Positions 1 to 8,905 of a stretch of DNA of 8,905 nt are shown in pieces. The notes below the pieces were generated by a model that made no database searches, had not been told where the DNA came from, and saw only the letters and a program-made list of their open reading frames with translations. The stretch lies in NCBI GenBank assembly GCA_028700905.1, contig JAQVRT010000030.1, positions 1-8,905 on the forward strand, given 5' to 3'. A program made the position numbers and the translations under genes. Each line of letters opens with the position of its first letter. Positions within the stretch are counted from its first letter, which is position 1. The DNA is from Candidatus Iainarchaeum sp. GTDB lineage: Archaea > Iainarchaeota > Iainarchaeia > Iainarchaeales > CSSED10-239.

Positions 1-1
1 G

Positions 2-487
2 ATTTCAAAAATTTATAAAAAAATTAGAAAAAATATTGAAGTAAATAAACCAAATGGAATAAATACAGATAATTACTTAACACATGGAGATTTAAATTCA
101 AAAAATATTATTGAAAATAATAAAAAAATTAATTTTATTGATTGGGAATATTTGAAAGTAGGTAATCCTATACTTGATATAGCAAAATTATCTCACTCTA
201 ATAAATTTAAAACATATGAAAAATTATTTCTTAAAGAATATATAAAAAATTTTAAACAAATAAAAAATATATCTAAAAAATATTTCTTTTTTAAAGATTT
301 ACAAGTATATTTTTGGCTTGTTACAAGTTCAGAATATTATTTTCATCTAATCTTTGAAGAAACTAAATATAATTTATATGATAGAAAGAAAATAATTAAA
401 GATATTTTAAAAAATTATAAATATCTTTATGATAAAGGATATACTGATAAAAAAATAGAACATTTTAGAAAGATATTAAAAATCTAA
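2..487 (+). CDS. APH/choline-kinase-like phosphotransferase, C-terminal part (5' end lies outside the window)
   Basis: The frame of the listed 152..487 ORF stays open back to nt 2. The extension reads ...[43 protein letters not shown]. It contains the HGDLxxxN catalytic loop (nt 83-106) and the IDWE metal-binding motif (nt 137-148) of the aminoglycoside/choline kinase fold. The TTG at 152 is therefore internal. TAA stop at 485-487. Confidence 0.8.
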
Positions 488-685
488 ATCTTCTTTACTA
501 AATATAAAAATATCATCTATTTTTTCTTTTAAAACTAAGGAGATCTTTTTTGCAAGCTTTAAAGAAGGATTATAAGATCCTTTCTCAATAAAGACAATTG
601 TTTCTCTTCTAACCCCTACCTTTAAAGCAAGGTCTTCTTGTGTTAAATTATATTTTTGTCTTAATTCTTTAATTATTGTTTTCAA
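476..685 (-). CDS. XRE-family (Cro/C1-type) helix-turn-helix transcriptional regulator, 69 aa
   Basis: [37 protein letters not shown] is a canonical HTH_3 pattern. The TTG start (685-683) directly abuts the TAG stop (688-686) of the upstream membrane-protein gene. It is preceded by GGTGAT (697-692) with a 6-nt spacer. The 3' end overlaps the convergent kinase gene by 12 nt. Confidence 0.85.
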
Positions 686-1084
686 CTATACATCACCTTT
701 TTTCCAGAACCATTGTTGATAGAATATCATTGTAAAGATCATTACAACATATAATATACTTATAACACCCTCTACTGTTAAAATAATTAATTTAAAATAA
801 TCTATCCAAAAAATAATAAAAAGAGCTATTAAAGTATAAAACCAACTATATGCTGCCGCCCTATCTGCAATTTTTCTTGTAAGCTCATCTTTTGCAGGAC
901 CATTTTTATATTTAATCATTCTAACATAACTTACTATTATTAATACTAAACCAACAGATATTAACACACTTGAAAAACTTTCAGTTAATACATTTAAAGC
1001 AGTTAAAAGAATACCTAATAATAAAATAATAACACCAAATATTAAAGAAATTTTAAATTTTTTTGAATAATTTTTATTTTTCAT
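686..1084 (-). CDS. Small 4-TM membrane protein (DUF2178-like), co-translated with the XRE regulator
   Basis: 132 aa with four hydrophobic helices. The cytoplasmic loop KNGPAKDELTRKIADRAAAYSWF resembles the DE(R/L)xxxI..A motif I associate with the DUF2178 family, which is commonly paired with small HTH genes. That family assignment is from memory, not a search. Strong SD GGAGGA (1096-1091) lies 6 nt before the ATG at 1084. Confidence 0.75.
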   Translation of the reverse strand: MKNKNYSKKFKISLIFGVIILLLGILLTALNVLTESFSSVLISVGLVLIIVSYVRMIKYKNGPAKDELTRKIADRAAAYSWFYTLIALFIIFWIDYFKLIILTVEGVISILYVVMIFTMIFYQQWFWKKGDV

Positions 1085-1105
1085 AATTTTTCCTCCAATT
1101 GTACT

Positions 1106-1160
1106 TGTTAGATATATATAACACCGAAATGTTTTTAAATATGTTAGATATATATCACAT
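1106..1160 (-). promoter_or_regulatory. Duplicated 14-bp box (TGTTAGATATATAT on + strand), candidate promoter/operator of the membrane-protein/XRE operon
   Basis: There are exact 14-bp copies at 1106-1119 and 1142-1155, 36 bp apart. Copy 1 is also an inverted repeat, TGTTA-N8-TAACA (1106-1123). Both contain a TATATATA core that could be a TATA box or -10 element. They lie 22-76 nt upstream of the ATG at 1084, in the 102-bp gap after the ABC operon. Confidence 0.4.
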
Positions 1161-1186
1161 GTTAAAAAATTATTAAAAAATTAAAA

Positions 1187-1987
1187 TTACATTCTTACAT
1201 AAAGAAGATTTCCACTCTCATATTTTTTAAGTCCCTTATAAAAAACATAGATAGCAAGTAAAAATAAAGCTATTGAGAATAAGAAAAGTAAAATAAACCA
1301 AGTTACGTCAAAAGAATGCAATAACTGAACAGGAACAGCGGTTATAAAACCTGCTGGAAGAATAAATAAAGTTATAAATTTTGTAGCTCCTGTAAAGATT
1401 GAACCAGGGTAAAGAGATATAGATATAAGTGATTCATAAAGAGTTGAACCAAAGCTCTCTGATGACTGAAGATAAAAAGATAAACTACCTACAAGTATAC
1501 CAAAACCAATTAATATTAATACACCAGGAATTATCATTAATAGTATTAAAGGAACCTTTGTAACTGAAACCATAAATAAAAGTAATAAAATTCCAAATAA
1601 AAGATCTCCTAAATCAAACCAACTATTCTTAGATATTAATATATGTGTTAAATCTTTTTTTGGAAGTGTTAAATAAAAATCTAATTTACCTTTAACAACA
1701 AGTTCTGCAATTTCTTTATGATTTCCAAAAAAATAACCTGCAATACCAAAAGAAATTGTTGCAAAAACATAAATGTATATTAGATCTTGAAAAACCCAAC
1801 CGTTGATATCTCCAAGCTTATAATATATAAGATACCAAAAAAATAACCAAATAACATCATTTAAAAACATGAAAAAAGTGGATAGCAAAAAGTTTGCCCT
1901 GTATTCTATGGCTGACTTTAAGAAAATCTTTTGATATTCTACAAATAATTTAAAATTTGAAATGATTTCTTTAACCGCCATTAACAC
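1187..1987 (-). CDS. ABC-2 family transporter permease (COG3694/COG4587-type, ABC2_membrane_6-like)
   Basis: Polytopic membrane protein (about 6 TM) with the N-terminal ...AIEYRANFLLS... typical of this permease family. It is the third gene of a tightly overlapping operon. The track start is GTG at 1987. The ATG at 1981 (MAVKEII...) is the more likely start and gives an 11-nt overlap with the upstream permease. Confidence 0.8.
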   Translation of the reverse strand: MLMAVKEIISNFKLFVEYQKIFLKSAIEYRANFLLSTFFMFLNDVIWLFFWYLIYYKLGDINGWVFQDLIYIYVFATISFGIAGYFFGNHKEIAELVVKGKLDFYLTLPKKDLTHILISKNSWFDLGDLLFGILLLLFMVSVTKVPLILLMIIPGVLILIGFGILVGSLSFYLQSSESFGSTLYESLISISLYPGSIFTGATKFITLFILPAGFITAVPVQLLHSFDVTWFILLFLFSIALFLLAIYVFYKGLKKYESGNLLYVRM

Positions 1988-2771
1988 TCACTTTTTTAAT
2001 TATATATTTATATAAGAAAAATAAAATTATTATAAAGAAACCTATCCATAGAAGCTGAACAATAAAAATTTCTAAAAAAGTTTTAAAACTAAAAATTAAA
2101 ACTAATTTTGAAGGATGATATGCAGAATAACTAAAAGGTAAGAATGCTGCAATTTTTTCAACTAAAGGAGGATAAACTTCTAAAGGAACAATCATTCCAC
2201 CAAAAATAAAAGTAAATTTTGAATAAATATAATTTAAAGAACTAGAATCTTCAATCCAAAAAGCAAAAAGGCTTATAACAGATGCAATAACTAAATTAAG
2301 CAGCATAGCAAGTAAAGCTACAATTAATAAAAAAGGAACTGATACTAAAGATATTTTAATTCCTCCAACCATAAGATAAGCTACAATTCCTCCAAAAAAA
2401 AGTACTAACATAAAATTTATTAATCCTTTTCCAAAAGAGACAAATATTTTGTAAACTATATAGTTGTATGGCTTTGTTAAATAATTTGCAATCTCTCCAC
2501 TCTTAATATCATCTCCAACTTCTTTTACAAATCTTCCAATAGATGTAACTAAAGCTTCTCCAAAAACTAAATACCACACCATCATAGAAAGAGTAAACCC
2601 AGGTATTACTTCTCCTTTTGATGCAAAAACAACAGTCCAAAGATTTGCAAAAACAAATATAATTAAAGCTATAAATATAACTTTTCCAAATATTATGTCC
2701 CAGATATATGTCAAACTTTCTTTTATATTAATAAAAGAAATAGACAAATATTTATTTAATTGAGAATTCAT
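1971..2771 (-). CDS. ABC-2 family transporter permease (second, paralogous membrane subunit)
   Basis: 266-aa polytopic membrane protein. Its start overlaps the ATPase stop in an ATGA (2771-2768). Its size and hydropathy are the same as the downstream permease. Confidence 0.8.
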   Translation of the reverse strand: MNSQLNKYLSISFINIKESLTYIWDIIFGKVIFIALIIFVFANLWTVVFASKGEVIPGFTLSMMVWYLVFGEALVTSIGRFVKEVGDDIKSGEIANYLTKPYNYIVYKIFVSFGKGLINFMLVLFFGGIVAYLMVGGIKISLVSVPFLLIVALLAMLLNLVIASVISLFAFWIEDSSSLNYIYSKFTFIFGGMIVPLEVYPPLVEKIAAFLPFSYSAYHPSKLVLIFSFKTFLEIFIVQLLWIGFFIIILFFLYKYIIKKVSVNGG

Positions 2772-3763
2772 CTTTGATCTCTGTATATCTCTTCAATAAC
2801 ATCTTCAATAGGCATCTCATTTATACCTATATCTGTTATCTTATATTTAGTAAATAAAAAATCAATAACTTTATTTAAAGGAAATTTTTTAGTATTAATT
2901 TCAAATTCAATATAGTATTTTGATTTTTTAATAACTATTAAATCTTTAAAATCTTTTAAATCTATTTTATCTTCAGTTGTAATCTTTAATAACTTTTTTG
3001 AAAGATATTTTTGTTTAATATTTTTAAAATCACCATCATAAACAATCTGACCATGATTAATGATTACAAGCCTTGTTGATATATTCTCAATATCCCCTAT
3101 ATCATGGCTGGTTAAGATAATTGTTGTTTTTTCTTTTTCATTTATCTTTTTAATCAATTCTCTCATTGTCTTTTTAACAATAATGTCCATACCAATAGTT
3201 GGTTCATCTAAAAATAAAATCTTAGGATTATGAAGTAAAGCTAAAACAAACTCACATCTCATCCTCTGACCTAAAGATAATTTTCTTACAGGCTGATTTA
3301 TAATGTCAGATATTTCAAAAAGATTTATTAAATTTTTAAGTCTTTCTTGATATATTTTTTTATCTAAATCATATATCTTTGCAAAAAGATTAAAACTATC
3401 TATTGGAGGAAGATGAAACCATAACTGTGGTTTCTGTCCAAAAATAGTTCCAATATCATAAGAAAGTTCTTTTCTTTTTTTTGAAGGATCTTTACCTAAA
3501 ATCTTTATTTTTCCAGAATCAGGAAAAAGAATACCTGAAAGCATCTTTAAAGTAGTTGACTTTCCAGCACCATTAGGTCCAATAAATGATACAAGTTCTC
3601 CTTCTTTAATATCTAAATAAATATTATCAACAGCTTTTATATATTTATAATCTGGAGAAAAAATATTTTTAAAAATACCACTCATGCCAGGTTTTGTAAC
3701 TTTTGTTTTAAATGTTTTTTTTAGCCCTTTAATAGAAATTATTTTTTTTTCTTCTTTTTTCAT
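2768..3763 (-). CDS. ABC transporter ATP-binding protein (COG4586-type, with C-terminal extension)
   Basis: Walker A GPNGAGKST (aa 62-70), Q-loop, signature LSLGQ (aa 162-166), Walker B ILFLDEPT (aa 182-189) and H-loop TSHD (aa 218-221). About 100 aa of extra C-terminal domain. No SD is visible upstream of the ATG at 3763. Confidence 0.93.
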   Translation of the reverse strand: MKKEEKKIISIKGLKKTFKTKVTKPGMSGIFKNIFSPDYKYIKAVDNIYLDIKEGELVSFIGPNGAGKSTTLKMLSGILFPDSGKIKILGKDPSKKRKELSYDIGTIFGQKPQLWFHLPPIDSFNLFAKIYDLDKKIYQERLKNLINLFEISDIINQPVRKLSLGQRMRCEFVLALLHNPKILFLDEPTIGMDIIVKKTMRELIKKINEKEKTTIILTSHDIGDIENISTRLVIINHGQIVYDGDFKNIKQKYLSKKLLKITTEDKIDLKDFKDLIVIKKSKYYIEFEINTKKFPLNKVIDFLFTKYKITDIGINEMPIEDVIEEIYRDQR

Positions 3764-3879
3764 AATTAATCAAAATAAAATATAAGTATTTTTAAAAAAT
3801 ATATTAAATAAATGTGTTTTTAAACGTATTCTTTAAATATATATGTGTTATTTTTAAAATTATAAGGAGGTTTTTAAAA

Positions 3880-4569
3880 ATGGTTAGCACACTTGTTGAA
3901 GTTGGGCAAGCTACATTAAACCCATTAGAAGCAATTTGGCAATCAATTGTTCAAAATATTCCTGGAATAATTGGAGCATTGGTTGTAATAATTATAGGTT
4001 ATCTAATAGGACTTTTAGTTGCTCACATAGTTTACAAAGTTATAACTAAATGGAAAATTGATAACTGGGTTAAAAAGAATGATTTTTCAAACGTATTATT
4101 ACACATTAAACTTTCAAAAATTATTAAACAATTAATTTTATGGGGTATATTCATTGTATTTTTAGCTCCAGCTGCAAGTTTAATAAAAATAAACGTTTTA
4201 ACAGATCTATTAACTAAATTTGCAATGTGGATACCACATTTAATATTTGCAATAATACTTACAATTGTAGGACTTGTTCTTTCAGAAATCGTTGCAAGAA
4301 ATATAAACGTTTCAAAAGATCATAAGTTTTCAAAAATAGTATCAGAAGTTGTACAAGCTATAATTATAATATTAATTTTAAATATAGCTTTAAGACAAAT
4401 AGGGGTACAAATACAATTTATTGAAGCTATACTTCTAATAATATTAGGAGGAGTAGTTTTAGCTTTCGCTATTGCAATTGGTATAGGTTTAAGTGGATCT
4501 GTTAAAAATTATTCCAGTAAACTTATGGAAACCTATATTTCAAAAAGAAAAGAAGTTAAAAAGAAGTAA
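3880..4569 (+). CDS. Membrane protein made of 'conserved TM helix' repeats (MscS-N-terminal-like, PF05552-type), 229 aa
   Basis: There are repeated helix units: IWQSIVQNIPGIIGALVVIIIGYLIGLLVA and LLTKFAMWIPHLIFAIILTIVGLVLSEIVA, plus two further helices and a basic tail. I place the start at ATG 3880, which has AAGGAGG (3864-3870) 9 nt upstream, rather than at the track's GTG at 3814. No MscS beta/channel domain is present. Confidence 0.75.
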   Translation: MVSTLVEVGQATLNPLEAIWQSIVQNIPGIIGALVVIIIGYLIGLLVAHIVYKVITKWKIDNWVKKNDFSNVLLHIKLSKIIKQLILWGIFIVFLAPAASLIKINVLTDLLTKFAMWIPHLIFAIILTIVGLVLSEIVARNINVSKDHKFSKIVSEVVQAIIIILILNIALRQIGVQIQFIEAILLIILGGVVLAFAIAIGIGLSGSVKNYSSKLMETYISKRKEVKKK

Positions 4570-4590
4570 TTTCTTACTTCTTTCTTTTTT
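4560..4590. terminator. Bidirectional hairpin between convergent genes (10-bp stem, UUUC loop, flanked by A-run and T-run)
   Basis: 4560-4569 (AAAGAAGTAA) pairs perfectly with 4574-4583 (TTACTTCTTT), with loop 4570-4573. A T-rich tract lies downstream (4584-4600) and an A-rich tract upstream. Both stop codons (TAA 4567-4569 on +, TAA 4576-4574 on -) sit in the stem. The stem has only 2 G:C pairs, so it is weak. Confidence 0.35.
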
Positions 4591-4900
4591 CTATTTTTTT
4601 ATTAAGAATTGTAAATCTCTTATAGAAATAAAATTCTGCAACTATTCCTATAGAATACAAGAATGTTCCAACACCTAAAAGAGTGTATATTGAAGTTAAT
4701 ATTTTACTTAAATTATGAGTTGGCACTAAATCTCCATACCCAACAGTTGTTAAAGTAGCTGTAGAGAAATAAAAAGAATCTACAAAAGACCATTCTTCAA
4801 TACTACTAAAAAGTAAAGTACCAATTAAAAGAAGAACAAAAATAAAAGTTAGAGCAAAATATAATCTGCTCTTAGTTATTTTTAATTGATGTTAAAACAT
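4574..4900 (-). pseudogene. Minimal 2-TM potassium channel (pore-only, Ion_trans_2-type) with in-frame TAA at codon 3; not in the ORF track
   Basis: Manual minus-strand translation gives ATG(4900-4898) TTT TAA(4894-4892), then 105 stop-free codons: HQLKITKSRLYFALTFIFVLLLIGTLLFSSIEEWSFVDSFYFSTATLTTVGYGDLVPTHNLSKILTSIYTLLGVGTFLYSIGIVAEFYFYKRFTILNKKIEKRKK, ending at stop 4576-4574. This is TM1, a pore helix, a TTVGYGD filter (4750-4730) and TM2. SD-like GTGAT (4910-4906) lies 5 nt before the ATG. There is no ATG/GTG/TTG between the TAA and TM1. The call as a channel is confident, but its status (pseudogene, sequencing error or read-through) is open. Confidence 0.75.
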
Positions 4901-4911
4901 AAAATATCACT

Positions 4912-6162
4912 TTATTTTTTTCCTTTTTTATCTTTTTTCTTAGAAGATATATAATAAATTAAACCAGCTAATAATATTAGAATTATTAAAATAGGAATCA
5001 ATAAATTAGTTTTATCTTTATCTTCTGAAACGACTTTTAAAATAATTGAATCATCATCAATAAATACTGTATCTTCTGATATAGATCTAATTTCTACATT
5101 TAATTTATATTCTTTTAAATTTGCATTAGGATCAATATCTATAGATATTACAGCTTCACCTTCTTGTAAAGATTCTAAATTACCTATAAAATCTGATTTT
5201 TCAACTAAATCAAAAGGATGAGAAGAATCTTTTAAAACTCTTAAAGAAACTGATTCTGCATCTTTATCTCCAAAATTTTTAACATTAACTTTAATGTCAA
5301 CTGTTTGTCCAGGAAATATAGTATTTGTTTCATTTAAAATTTCTTGACCTATAACTTTAAGATAAGGTTTTGCTTTAACAGGAATTTCTAAAATCATATC
5401 TTTTTCTTTTAATTCTTTATCAGAATCGCTTTCTTCAATATATTTTACTTTAACCTTAGCTTGATATATTCCTGATTTAATTTCATCATCAATATCAAGA
5501 TATATTGATCCAGTTTTATTTTGAGAAGCATCAATATTCCCTAAATTAATTCTATCTGAATATGCATATGTAGGATTAAAACCTTCTGGAAGACTTATTT
5601 CTAAAATAACATTTTCAGCATCTCCTTTTCCAATATTTAATAAATCTACATCAATTTTTGCTTCTTCTTGACCACTTAAAAGTTTTCTAGGAGTTGTTAA
5701 TAAATTTCCAAATACAAAATTAGGGACTTCTTTATTATCAACTCTAATATTAAATTTTTCAACATTCCATACATCTATATCATTATATTTATATCTTAAT
5801 GAAATTTCATAATCTCCTTCTAAAGCTAAAGAATCAACTAAAACTTTATAGTAAAGAGTATAATACCAATCTTCTCCTGATTGACCTTTCCATAAAGAAA
5901 TATTTCTATCAGGAGTATCTGATAAATCAAATGATAAAGGATGTTCAACATCTAAATAAAATTGAATATTTTCTGCAGAATTATTACCTGTTTTATAAAC
6001 ATTAAATCTTAGTTCTAAGTATTCTCCAGGAATTGCAGGATCTGGATCTTGATTTTGCAAATTTGCAGATAATTTAACAGTATCTAAATTATTTGCATAA
6101 ATTGGTTTTATTAATATCATTGTTAATAAAACCAAAACTAAAAATATATATTTTTTATTCAT
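4912..6162 (-). CDS. Secreted, C-terminally membrane-anchored surface protein with three CARDB-like (COG1361 'S-layer domain'-type) beta-sandwich repeats
   Basis: Sec signal peptide MNKKYIFLVLVLLTMILIKPIYA|NN. Three repeats of about 115 aa have the cores PGEYLELRFNVYKTGNNSAENIQFYL, SGQEEAKIDVDLLNIGKGDAENVILEISL and PGQTVDIKVNVKNFGDKDAESVSLRVL (roughly nt 5737-6084, 5374-5736 and 5029-5373). A C-terminal TM helix LLIPILIILILLAGLIYYI is followed by a Lys-rich tail. SD AGGTG (6176-6172) lies 9 nt before the ATG. Confidence 0.85.
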   Translation of the reverse strand: MNKKYIFLVLVLLTMILIKPIYANNLDTVKLSANLQNQDPDPAIPGEYLELRFNVYKTGNNSAENIQFYLDVEHPLSFDLSDTPDRNISLWKGQSGEDWYYTLYYKVLVDSLALEGDYEISLRYKYNDIDVWNVEKFNIRVDNKEVPNFVFGNLLTTPRKLLSGQEEAKIDVDLLNIGKGDAENVILEISLPEGFNPTYAYSDRINLGNIDASQNKTGSIYLDIDDEIKSGIYQAKVKVKYIEESDSDKELKEKDMILEIPVKAKPYLKVIGQEILNETNTIFPGQTVDIKVNVKNFGDKDAESVSLRVLKDSSHPFDLVEKSDFIGNLESLQEGEAVISIDIDPNANLKEYKLNVEIRSISEDTVFIDDDSIILKVVSEDKDKTNLLIPILIILILLAGLIYYISSKKKDKKGKK

Positions 6163-6194
6163 ACTTAATCACACCTTTTTTTTTAAAAAATATT

Positions 6195-7421
6195 TCATTT
6201 TTTTTTAAATTTTACTTTTAAAGATAAAATCCATTTTTCTAAAACAACTAAAATTGCTGGAACAAATGTAATTGCTGCAAAGAAACAAGCAGTAACTCCA
6301 TAACTCATCATTTTTCCTAAATCTTGAAGTAAAGTTAATTCTCCCATAGACATTGCTTTAAAACCAATTAATGCAGCAATAGTTGTTGTTGCCATTGGAA
6401 TAAAAACATTTTTCATAGTTTCTTCCATAGCTTTTTCAGGAGATTTATCTTTTATTTCTTGTTTAAATCTCATAACAGTCTGGATACCAAAATCAATTCC
6501 AATACCCATAATCATTGAAATAACTCCAGAAGTAATTGAAGAAAGACCCATTTTAACAAGCCCAAGATATCCAAAAGTCCAAACTACTCCAATTAATATT
6601 GTTGAAAGAGGTATAATTCCAAACCTTATTGATCCAAGAACTGTTAAAATTTTTATTTTTTTAGAATGTTTTTTATTAAATGAAGAAATTATTTCTCCAG
6701 CTACAAATATAAATATTAATAAAATAATTATTCCATATATTGAATAACTACTTGTCTTTTGCATATCAGGTCCAATTTCTCTTTCAACAATTGGACCTGC
6801 TGCAATTTCTCCAGCAACATTAACATTAAGCCCTATATTTGGTTTACCAATTGAAGAAATTATTTTTTCAAGATTAAAAACAACTTCTTCAGCATTTTCT
6901 TCTTCACTAAAATCATCTGTTAAAGAAATTCTTATAACTGTCATTGAATAATCTTTACTTATAATATTTTCAAAAATAAAATTTTCACTTATAAGTTTAT
7001 TAATTTCTAGATTAGATTTAGGAATAATATCATTATTTACTTCTTTTACAACTGTTGAAATGCTTGAAACTTCCAAAATATAATCTGTGTTTTCAATATA
7101 TTGAGAAATTACATCAATATATTCAATAACTTTATAATCTCTTAAATCATTTACTTTATTATACCCTTGAAAAGAATCATCAAGCTCAATTGCAATTAAA
7201 ATACTAGATGGATTTCCAAAAGTATCTTCCAAAAGATCAAATGCTCTAACAACTTCATAATTATCAGGAACCATATCAGAATTACTAAAATTAACATATT
7301 CTACTTTAGATGAAAAATACATTGCAAAAATAATAAGAATTACAACAATAAGTATTACAAGATAAGGTCTGTGAGATACAAAATAAGAATACCTATCCAA
7401 AGGTTTGTCATACCAGCTCAT
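6195..7421 (-). CDS. Half-size RND/MMPL-family exporter subunit (C-terminal-half equivalent; COG1033/HAE3-like), 408 aa
   Basis: Topology is 1 TM, then an extracytoplasmic loop of about 190 aa, then 5 TM. The MMPL-type TM4-equivalent motif is MGIGIDFGIQTVMRFKQE. The ATG overlaps the upstream stop in an ATGA (7421-7418). SD-like AAGGAAGG lies 8 nt upstream. TGA stop at 6195-6197. Confidence 0.88.
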   Translation of the reverse strand: MSWYDKPLDRYSYFVSHRPYLVILIVVILIIFAMYFSSKVEYVNFSNSDMVPDNYEVVRAFDLLEDTFGNPSSILIAIELDDSFQGYNKVNDLRDYKVIEYIDVISQYIENTDYILEVSSISTVVKEVNNDIIPKSNLEINKLISENFIFENIISKDYSMTVIRISLTDDFSEEENAEEVVFNLEKIISSIGKPNIGLNVNVAGEIAAGPIVEREIGPDMQKTSSYSIYGIIILLIFIFVAGEIISSFNKKHSKKIKILTVLGSIRFGIIPLSTILIGVVWTFGYLGLVKMGLSSITSGVISMIMGIGIDFGIQTVMRFKQEIKDKSPEKAMEETMKNVFIPMATTTIAALIGFKAMSMGELTLLQDLGKMMSYGVTACFFAAITFVPAILVVLEKWILSLKVKFKKK

Positions 7422-8596
7422 TTAATCAACCTTCCTTGTTTATCGGTTATATTTTTATAGGTGTCATGCATCTTTTTTGAAAACCAAAAAGTAAAGTCTT
7501 CAAAGAGAATTATAAGACTTGGAGAAATAAAAATTGCAATAAATAAACTAAAACCAATCCCAATTGCAAGAGAATTACCAAGATCTTTTAAAACAGGCAT
7601 AATCGAAAAAGTTAATGCTAAAAAACCAACAATTGTTGTAAGACCAGAACCTAGAATAGAAGATCCTATTGAAGGAACAGTTACTTTTAAAGACTCTTCT
7701 TGTGTTCTCCCTTTATTTCTTTCCTCTCTGTATCTTGAAGTCATAAAAACTCCATACTCTACACCTAAACCTAAAATCATTGCACCAATTCCAACAGTTG
7801 CAACTGAAAGTTTAATTGAAAGCCAACCCATGGTTCCAATAGTCCAAATAACGCCTAAAAATATTGGAGAAAATACTAAAAAACCTCTTGAAAAAGAAGT
7901 TTCTGTAATAAATAATAAAATTAATATTATGATTATAGCATAAATTAATGTTTTAACAGCATCTTTACCTAAAATATCTAAAACTGTAACACCTACAGGT
8001 GCTGTTCCTGTTACCATTACATCAATACCAGTAGGTTTATTTACAAGATTTATTTTTTCATTAATCATTTCAGTAAAAGCAATTGTTTTGTCTTGATTTC
8101 CAGATAAATCAGATGTTAGATATAAAATTGTTGTTTTATAATCTTTACTAAAAAAATCTGATATTCCTGGCAATAAATCAATTGAATTAATTACATCTTC
8201 ATTTGAGTTTAAAGAAAACATAGAAAGATATGTTGATGCAGATATAACTGTATTAACTTGACTTTCTTTTCTAAATTCAGTTTCAAGTTCTTTTAAATAA
8301 TTAATTACTTCAATATTTCTGATATCATATTCTTTAAAACTAGAATTAAAAGAATCATTATATTTTAGAATAATAACAACAACATCAGAACCTCCAAACT
8401 TATCTGTTATTTTTTCATTAAGTTTAAAGATATCAAGTTCTGAAGGAGACATTTTTGAAAAATCAGTTTCCATTTGTATTTTTGGAACACCTAATATAAA
8501 AAAAATAGTTATGATTATAGTTAATAATAAGATAAAATATTTATATTTTTTTTGAAAAATAGATAATTTTTCAAGACAAGTATATATAAATGACAT
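7418..8596 (-). CDS. Half-size RND/MMPL-family exporter subunit (N-terminal-half equivalent; COG1033/HAE3-like), 392 aa
   Basis: Topology is 1 TM, then a loop of about 180 aa, then 5 TM. The motif LGLGVEYGVFMTSRYREE is typical of MMPL/COG1033 proteins. SD-like AGGA lies 8 nt before the ATG at 8596. TGA stop at 7418-7420. Confidence 0.88.
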   Translation of the reverse strand: MSFIYTCLEKLSIFQKKYKYFILLLTIIITIFFILGVPKIQMETDFSKMSPSELDIFKLNEKITDKFGGSDVVVIILKYNDSFNSSFKEYDIRNIEVINYLKELETEFRKESQVNTVISASTYLSMFSLNSNEDVINSIDLLPGISDFFSKDYKTTILYLTSDLSGNQDKTIAFTEMINEKINLVNKPTGIDVMVTGTAPVGVTVLDILGKDAVKTLIYAIIIILILLFITETSFSRGFLVFSPIFLGVIWTIGTMGWLSIKLSVATVGIGAMILGLGVEYGVFMTSRYREERNKGRTQEESLKVTVPSIGSSILGSGLTTIVGFLALTFSIMPVLKDLGNSLAIGIGFSLFIAIFISPSLIILFEDFTFWFSKKMHDTYKNITDKQGRLIK

Positions 8597-8628
8597 ATTT
8601 TATTCCTGTTTTTATAATGATTTTTTTA

Positions 8629-8652
8629 ATAAAATAAAAAAAATAAAAAAAA
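8629..8652 (-). terminator. Oligo-T tract immediately after the stop codon (archaeal-style termination signal candidate)
   Basis: The minus strand reads TTTTTTTTATTTTTTTTATTTTAT directly after the TAA at 8655-8653. There is no hairpin. In a genome this AT-rich the signal is weak evidence on its own. Confidence 0.25.
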
Positions 8653-8904
8653 TTAGAAGGATTTAATAATAATAACTTTCTCTGTTTTTTGTTTTAAAGA
8701 AGTATAATCTAAATAATGTTCGTTAACAATAACTAAAACTCTATGGTCCCCTGCTTTAATACCTTGAAAAGGAAAAATGTCTAATTTTTCAGATATAGTT
8801 TCATCTGGTTTTAAAGTACCATGTCTTATTGAAACTGATTTTTTAAGACCACTTTTATCAAAAGAAAGAGTTCTTTCTAAAACTACATCATAACTTATAA
8901 ATTT
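8653..8904 (-). CDS. Hypothetical protein, C-terminal 83 aa (5' end outside window); not in the ORF track
   Basis: Manual translation is open from the window edge to TAA (8655-8653): KFISYDVVLERTLSFDKSGLKKSVSIRHGTLKPDETISEKLDIFPFQGIKAGDHRVLVIVNEHYLDYTSLKQKTEKVIIIKSF. 83 stop-free codons are unlikely by chance at this AT content. The beta-strand-like alternation is suggestive, but I recognise no family. Confidence 0.55.
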   Translation of the reverse strand, partial: KFISYDVVLERTLSFDKSGLKKSVSIRHGTLKPDETISEKLDIFPFQGIKAGDHRVLVIVNEHYLDYTSLKQKTEKVIIIKSF

Positions 8905-8905
8905 A

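Follow-up and report, generated by a model that had tools for sequence, protein, structure and literature searches.

Introduction

The closest described counterparts of the gene analyzed here are cellular prokaryotic channels built on a two-transmembrane (2TM), P-loop pore of ~100 residues per subunit, namely NaK/NaK2K of Bacillus cereus (PDB 3ouf, 3t4d, 3e83 and 2ahy) and the pore of MthK (PDB 3ldc). The wild-type NaK filter is the non-selective TVGDG; the engineered NaK2K and native MthK carry a filter of the K+-selective TVGYGD type, and MthK has a C-terminal RCK gating domain. Viral miniature K+ channels represent minimal functional pore modules, the smallest of which counts 78 amino acids (aa) (PMC12332018), and a 2025 review of pore modules treats viral and engineered stand-alone pores only. 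Here, we analyzed a contig of 8,905 nucleotides (nt) from Candidatus Iainarchaeum sp., a DPANN archaeon of the Iainarchaeota (NCBI assembly GCA_028700905.1, contig JAQVRT010000030.1), which in its full length we call the window. Its minus strand holds a 108-codon gene for a pore-only K+ channel with a TTVGYGD filter. Unlike NaK and MthK, this copy is interrupted at codon 3 by a TAA stop. We read it as a real loss-of-function nonsense allele, a very young pseudogene that segregates in a recombining population, and give this reading a probability of about 0.8. On this view, the locus would document two consecutive stages of gene loss in a genome-reduced archaeon whose natural population recombines.

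Results

A K+ channel gene with a stop at its third codon

On the minus strand, positions 4900 to 4574 read ATG TTT TAA CAT CAA..., with the translation MF*HQLKITKSRLYFALTFIFVLLLIGTLLFSSIEEWSFVDSFYFSTATLTTVGYGDLVPTHNLSKILTSIYTLLGVGTFLYSIGIVAEFYFYKRFTILNKKIEKRKK* (asterisks mark stops). In outline this frame is MF*HQLK...TTVGYGD...KRKK*, and the terminal TAA of the channel gene lies at 4576-4574. The initial annotation had proposed that the apparent gap between two neighboring genes encodes a pore-only channel of about 107 aa with a TTVGYGD filter, blocked by TAA at codon 3. Translation and Pfam both bear this out, for a length of ~107-108 aa. The 105 codons after the stop match Ion_trans_2 (PF07885) with E=1.9e-19 and 69.8 bits against a gathering cutoff of 22.5, so the channel assignment made from the letters alone is upheld by a highly significant profile match. 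The match spans profile positions 2-77 of 79 and residues 16-88 of the 105-aa query; no other Pfam family, and no RCK domain, scored above its curated cutoff in that query. The elements of the gene are as follows, in window coordinates, with residues numbered on the 108-aa protein.

4574..4900, minus strand: disrupted allele of the 108-codon pore-only K+ channel gene (translation, Pfam, identity to the intact protein P0001, synteny in 12 related loci)
4905..4910, minus strand: Shine-Dalgarno-like AGTGAT, 5 nt before the ATG (kept in all orthologous loci; similar motifs at other genes)
4898..4900, minus strand: ancestral ATG start (the same ATG begins the intact 108-aa gene in L001-L010, L012 and L013)
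4892..4894, minus strand: premature TAA at codon 3 (derived from TCA, Ser, by C->A at window 4893)
4799..4864, minus strand: outer helix TM1, residues 13-34, LYFALTFIFVLLLIGTLLFSSI (hydropathy maximum 2.62 at residues 13-31)
4751..4786, minus strand: pore helix, residues 39-50 (helix in the AlphaFold2 model; conserved DSFYFS..TL block)
4730..4750, minus strand: selectivity filter TTVGYGD, residues 51-57 (direct reading of the sequence)
4625..4714, minus strand: inner helix TM2, residues 63 to ~92 (AlphaFold2 helix 63-107; hydropathy window 70-88)
4577..4624, minus strand: short basic C-terminal tail, YKRFTILNKKIEKRKK (translation; motif kept in the closest orthologs P0002-P0004)

The coordinates first given for the ATG (4900-4898), the TAA (4894-4892) and a GTGAT 5 nt before the ATG (4909-4905) are correct. 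The position of the stop codon likewise stands, although the mutated base is not the one at 4894, as first supposed, and is instead the middle base of the codon, 4893 (G->T on the plus strand). GGTGA- or GGAGG-type motifs precede other genes of the window, at a spacing like that of the channel gene.

With TAA at codon 3, the window copy lacks an uninterrupted frame from the conserved start to the terminal stop. A check of the in-frame codons confirmed that no ATG, GTG or TTG precedes TM1: the next canonical start after the TAA is GTG at codon 59 (4726), downstream of the filter, and the list of open reading frames (ORFs) accordingly gives just a 50-aa remnant from this GTG for the channel region. 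Just two near-cognate codons, ATA (codon 8) and AAG (codon 10), follow the stop ahead of TM1. At the 24% GC of the window, stops make up a fraction of 0.093 of random codons (~1 in 10.8), close to the early estimate of 1 in 11-12, and the probability of 105 stop-free codons is 3.7e-5. Shuffled windows contain 0.14 runs of >=105 codons per window over all six frames. Together, these two figures indicate that the 105-codon frame is not a product of chance.

The coding sequence also contains, at codons 10-17 (4851-4872, minus strand), a terminator-like hairpin composed of AGAGCAGATTATATTTTGCTCT and a T-rich tail. Shuffles predict 0.0 such hairpins, and intact alleles carry it too; in L009 and L010, a C->T change at 4868 leaves one of its pairs as a G-T wobble.

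The intact protein is a cellular pore of the NaK/MthK type

An AlphaFold2 model of the intact protein, built on 35 homologs, reached a mean predicted local distance difference test (pLDDT) score of 93.7. It comprises a helix over residues 2-35 (pLDDT 85-98), the pore helix at 39-50, the filter loop at 51-62, and the inner helix with the tail at 63-107. Structural comparison of this model by Foldseek returned NaK2K and the MthK pore as best matches (E 2e-5 to 5e-4, 32-36% identity, root-mean-square deviation 1.9-2.4 A over ~80 residues), and NaK and MthK were also matched by sequence with E ~1e-12 in a search of PDB sequences. The shared plan is the 2TM, P-loop pore, and the filter is of the TVGYGD kind found in NaK2K and MthK. 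In contrast to MthK, the 108-aa channel has no RCK domain. From sequence and model, the intact protein is thus best described as a 108-residue pore-only 2TM P-loop K+ channel of the cellular NaK/MthK-pore type. By analogy with these channels, four 108-aa subunits would be expected to assemble into a tetramer with a K+-selective pore in the intact strains.

The channel had been called Kcv-like on first reading. Viral Kcv of chloroviruses, Kmpv and Kesv (78-124 aa) do share its size class and stand-alone pore-module architecture, the 108-aa protein falls within the Kcv-type size range (pore module only, <= ~125 residues), and some giant-virus channels superpose well on the model (TM-score 0.7-0.8). 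While size and architecture thus hold, family membership does not: the viral channels are more distant than the cellular ones (19-29% identity, Foldseek E >= 2e-3), and NaK/NaK2K and the MthK pore are nearest both by sequence and by fold. Moreover, Kcv is virus-encoded, whereas the channel described here is chromosomal, on archaeal contigs of 0.25-0.84 Mb and beside housekeeping genes; its neighbors on these contigs include an ABC transporter, MMPL proteins, a tRNA deacylase and DXP reductoisomerase. Both sequence and model therefore point to convergent minimalism as the nature of the Kcv resemblance. At 108 aa, the intact channel is a cellular stand-alone pore module of a size that discussions usually reserve for viral Kcv, and it could serve as an experimental subject. 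Our literature searches returned no work on miniature K+ channels of DPANN archaea, nor any link between DPANN and Kcv-type channels.

Eukaryotic K2P pore domains (TASK-1/3, TWIK and TREK) were the top sequence matches in PDB (E ~5e-16), and each of the two pore domains aligns to the channel; over K2P pore domains and NaK together, E ranged from 1e-16 to 1e-12. A K2P subunit carries two pore domains in tandem (4TM) and forms a dimer, as opposed to the single pore domain (2TM) found here. K2P channels are dimers, and single-pore 2TM subunits would form tetramers. The name 'two pore domain' given by NCBI to orthologs of this protein is a naming artefact, probably transferred from K2P matches.

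The protein family is already known and annotated, and public databases contain orthologs with 99-100% identity to the channel across the 105 shared residues. In a size range of 90-130 aa, homologs occur widely among DPANN archaea, Patescibacteria, Chloroflexota and deltaproteobacteria. This limits the interest of the channel as such, which belongs to a common annotated pore-only K+ channel family across DPANN archaea, Patescibacteria and other bacteria.

The stop is a derived state

We compared the window with 12 related loci (L001-L010, L012 and L013; 94-98% nt identity). All 12 have TCA at codon 3, including the 94%-identity outgroup L009/L010, and in all 12 the same syntenic position is occupied by an intact gene of 108 aa that begins MFSHQLK.... 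At this codon, one C->A substitution at 4893 (minus strand), and no indel, sets the window apart from them. Compensating homopolymer indels around ATGTTTTAAC that would restore the frame were also considered and rejected, the orthologs showing a plain C->A with no length change.

Protein databases give the same picture. A homology search recovered a cluster of four proteins (P0001, P0103, P0104 and P0105) 99-100% identical to the query, and three of them (P0001, P0103 and P0105, 108 aa) are intact, with Ser3. P0001 (JGI, Joint Genome Institute; MFSHQLKITKS...) is 100% identical to the window over 105 aa. P0103, which corresponds to NCBI NCP72204.1 and others ('two pore domain potassium channel family protein [archaeon]'), is encoded on at least 43 contigs of up to 840 kb. 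More distant orthologs (56-64% identity) start with MFK or MFT, and an MF[S/T/K] N-terminus is conserved. Given the 12 TCA loci, the MFK and MFT orthologs, and the Shine-Dalgarno-like AGTGAT, sequence comparison identifies ATG 4900 as the genuine conserved start and TAA as the derived state. Two of the explanations offered at the outset are thereby supported: a very recent nonsense mutation, in that TCA is ancestral and a single substitution separates it from the window; and, since two contigs that differ elsewhere carry the TAA (see below), a population polymorphism. An old pseudogene would have left degraded orthologs, and the orthologous loci are intact.

A second, separately assembled carrier

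Searching for the exact TAA-containing 42-mer, we found it in one JGI metagenome contig, Ga0334898_1000040 (L011, 246 kb). This contig and the window disagree at 27 of 4526 aligned positions (99.4% identity) and share an identical 856-bp haplotype block, 4807-5662, that holds the TAA. An exact 32-mer scan of species-representative genomes returned no carrier, and the 50-aa GTG-start product that a gene caller could predict from a TAA allele was not on record; the 89-aa product annotated by NCBI for this gene (see below) was not on record in the contig index searched for TAA carriers. Intact alleles are found on dozens of contigs and the TAA in the window and L011, which makes TAA the minority allele.

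This second contig bears directly on whether the TAA is a sequencing, assembly or consensus artefact, arising for instance from oxidative G->T damage or low coverage, in a gene that really reads TCA. Such an artefact would be compatible with several features of the window: it is a short contig (8.9 kb) from a metagenome-assembled genome, most related contigs read TCA, and the stop amounts to a single G:C->T:A change. G:C->T:A changes are a known artefact class. Nevertheless, the same TAA stands in a separately assembled 246-kb contig with 27 other differences, so that the same error would have to have occurred twice, and no other gene of the window is disrupted. Because two differing consensus sequences share the stop on a common haplotype, an error, one of the causes first entertained, appears very unlikely and, on this comparison, effectively excluded. 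For the same reason, and given the four-gamete conflict and the mosaic structure described below, a single origin of the TAA followed by recombination is favored over recurrent independent TAA mutations.

Selection on intact alleles and decay after the stop

Over codons 4-108, the intact alleles differ by 19 synonymous changes and three conservative missense changes (S33N, L68F and F90Y), where random substitution would be expected to yield 22% synonymous, 72% missense and 6% nonsense changes. Judged by this 19:3 ratio against the random expectation, the intact gene is under strong purifying selection. The window copy has 0 private substitutions in the channel gene, each of its differences being shared with some intact allele. 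Its clean 105 codons are consequently silent on selection since the stop arose. The initial annotation had taken the stop-free frame to be either under selection or only recently inactivated; of these, the lack of private substitutions speaks for recent inactivation and not for ongoing selection.

L011 has gone further. Three changes in the gene are private to it, namely a synonymous one, S32N, and GGA->TGA at G56, by which TTVGYGD becomes TTVGY*D:

4733..4735 (L011 928-930), channel frame, minus strand: second stop, TGA at G56, found by codon comparison

All 35 homologs keep filter residues T52, G54, Y55, G56 and D57 unchanged, and a stop at the filter glycine is, in qualitative terms, incompatible with a functional channel. 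The four neighboring genes that differ between the window and L011 show synonymous or conservative changes only, and all nine remaining genes of the window extend over their full length, free of internal stops. On this evidence, decay is specific to the channel gene.

Both nonsense hits are G:C->T:A transversions (TCA->TAA and GGA->TGA), a direction that would fit AT-biased (or oxidative-damage) mutation in a genome of 24% GC. An apparent L269* in a neighboring gene was discarded. It came from scoring two substitutions of one codon apart, where TTA has in fact become GAA, and the orthologs, at 331 aa, are intact. A genetic code in which TAA would be read as sense was rejected as well, for TAA, TAG and TGA all end the nine other genes at ortholog lengths.

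What the stop is predicted to do

In the reading we favor, a single G:C->T:A transversion turned codon 3 from TCA (Ser) into TAA in the window lineage. Ribosomes starting at the Shine-Dalgarno motif and ATG would stop after Met-Phe, and with no usable start before TM1 no functional channel subunit would be made. The window copy would represent the first step of decay, and L011, which carries a second stop on the same haplotype, the second. The channel gene being the last of its cluster, the stop should be without polar effect on other genes. Loss of the channel appears to be tolerated.

The gene might instead still function in the TAA strains, by re-initiation at ATA8 or AAG10 (~99-101 aa, TM1 intact) or by read-through, in which case the stop would lower or regulate expression rather than abolish it. 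Both near-cognate codons do lie upstream of TM1, the 105 downstream codons of the window are undamaged, and the allele has persisted on two haplotypes that differ downstream. Nevertheless, the TGA of L011 at invariant G56 lies beyond rescue by any downstream start before TM1, and the intactness of the window copy, without private mutations, is uninformative on selection. With ~25 nt between them, the Shine-Dalgarno motif is also too distant from the ATA to guide ribosomes to it. Among the stop codons, UAA normally terminates translation most efficiently, and initiation at AUA or AAG typically reaches ~1% or less of that at AUG. Non-canonical initiation or read-through, listed among the first explanations, is thus disfavored by the second stop in the only other TAA carrier, and we consider continued function unlikely.

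In a variant of this idea, the stop of L011 is a separate, later loss, and the window allele is either alive, with ATG TTT TAA acting as a mini-ORF ahead of re-initiation at AUA8 or read-through (~101-108 aa, low dosage), or a null kept by balancing selection, for instance if a constitutively leaky pore-only channel carries a cost under some conditions. We hold this pair of scenarios to be quite improbable.

Several points nevertheless weigh against our interpretation of the window copy as a segregating loss-of-function allele. Only two TAA carriers were found, and L011 and the window may not come from independent sampling sites. L011 is an assembly consensus in which TAA and TGA stand 158 bp apart, probably on one molecule. 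The contrast between the private changes of L011 and the variation among intact alleles is by itself not significant (Fisher p of 0.09 on n=3 changes). Finally, the lack of translation of the window copy is something we infer from its sequence. ATA (codon 8) and AAG (codon 10) do stand between the stop and TM1, and weak re-initiation could conceivably give a ~101-aa product with a complete TM1.

The public gene model starts inside the first helix

While the ORF list does miss the channel frame, the gene is not truly unannotated, as the word 'hidden' in the initial annotation implied. NCBI has an N-truncated model on the window contig, MDD4049993.1 (P0104), 'potassium channel family protein [Candidatus ainarchaeum sp.]', of 89 aa and without a pseudogene flag:

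4574..4843, minus strand: public NCBI gene model, 89 aa, ATT start at codon 20 (4843-4841); equals codons 20-108, with Met replacing Ile20

That this model is right, and the true product an 89-aa protein from the ATT of codon 20, is extremely unlikely, although an NCBI pipeline produced it and translation table 11 permits ATT as a start. Residues 1-19 would be lost; the ATT sits inside TM1, leaving 15 apolar residues of a 22-residue helix, and in the AlphaFold2 model this helix is continuous (residues 2-35). No Shine-Dalgarno-like motif precedes the ATT, which lies inside conserved coding sequence, and 12/12 relatives use the upstream ATG. In L011, the TGA falls downstream of the ATT, so the model fails there too. 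The 89-aa model probably exists only because the stop cuts off the real start, and as an annotation fix it should be recorded as a pseudogene of the 108-aa protein.

The nonsense allele in a recombining population

We compared the window over 1-8905 with L001, L012, L009 and L011. From ~1500 to 4000, the window lies close to L001 (1-10 differences per 500 bp, compared with 17-43 to L012). From ~4000 to 8500, it follows L012 (0-8 differences); over 7000-8500 in particular, it shows 2-7 differences to L012 against 25-32 to L001. The window thus has the structure of a recombination mosaic, which implies that these strains exchange DNA frequently by homologous recombination. In a four-gamete test, the TAA site shows all four allele combinations with sites 45.3 and 47.3. 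Taken at the level of these sequences, the nonsense allele segregates in a recombining population.

In the intergenic region before the first MMPL gene (8623-8653), the BLAST alignment to L001-L005 breaks, at a local indel or divergence hotspot.

Genomic setting and neighboring genes

The 12 related loci have a common gene order of tRNA deacylase, a 117-aa ORF, MMPL, MMPL, CARDB and the channel, and beyond the channel follow a convergent MS-helix protein, an ABC transporter, DUF2178, HTH and APH. The order MMPL-MMPL-CARDB-channel is conserved in all related loci. Next to the channel gene, the window carries:

4912..6162, minus strand: CARDB-domain surface protein with a C-terminal transmembrane anchor (ORF list and Pfam), ending 11 nt before the channel ATG
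6195-8596, minus strand: two MMPL/SecDF-like half-transporter genes, 392 and 408 aa, overlapping by 4 nt (7418-7421)
3880..4569, plus strand: convergent membrane protein with an MS_channel_1st_1 transmembrane-helix domain (Pfam PF05552, E=9.3e-12)

Since only 11 nt separate the CARDB stop from the channel gene, the latter, with which the MMPL-MMPL-CARDB-channel cluster ends, is probably co-transcribed with CARDB. On the other side, the stop of the MS_channel_1st_1 protein lies 4 nt from the channel stop.

A plus-strand ORF at 4493-4678 was considered and set aside: it has no Pfam match, and 19 of the 22 variable sites of the intact alleles over codons 4-108 are synonymous in the minus frame, nearly all of these at third codon positions. 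No RNA element was found either, as no Rfam family reached its threshold anywhere in the window.

Two start sites leave a choice. For the MS_channel_1st_1 protein (3814-3882, plus strand), the longest ORF begins at GTG 3814 (251 aa) and the alternative at ATG 3880 (229 aa), with AGGAGG 8 nt before the latter; related loci have been called at both 251 and 229 aa. For the second ABC-2 permease (1981-1987, minus strand), the candidate starts are GTG 1987 (266 aa) and ATG 1981 (264 aa); AAAGTGAG precedes ATG 1981, and related loci call this permease at 264 aa.

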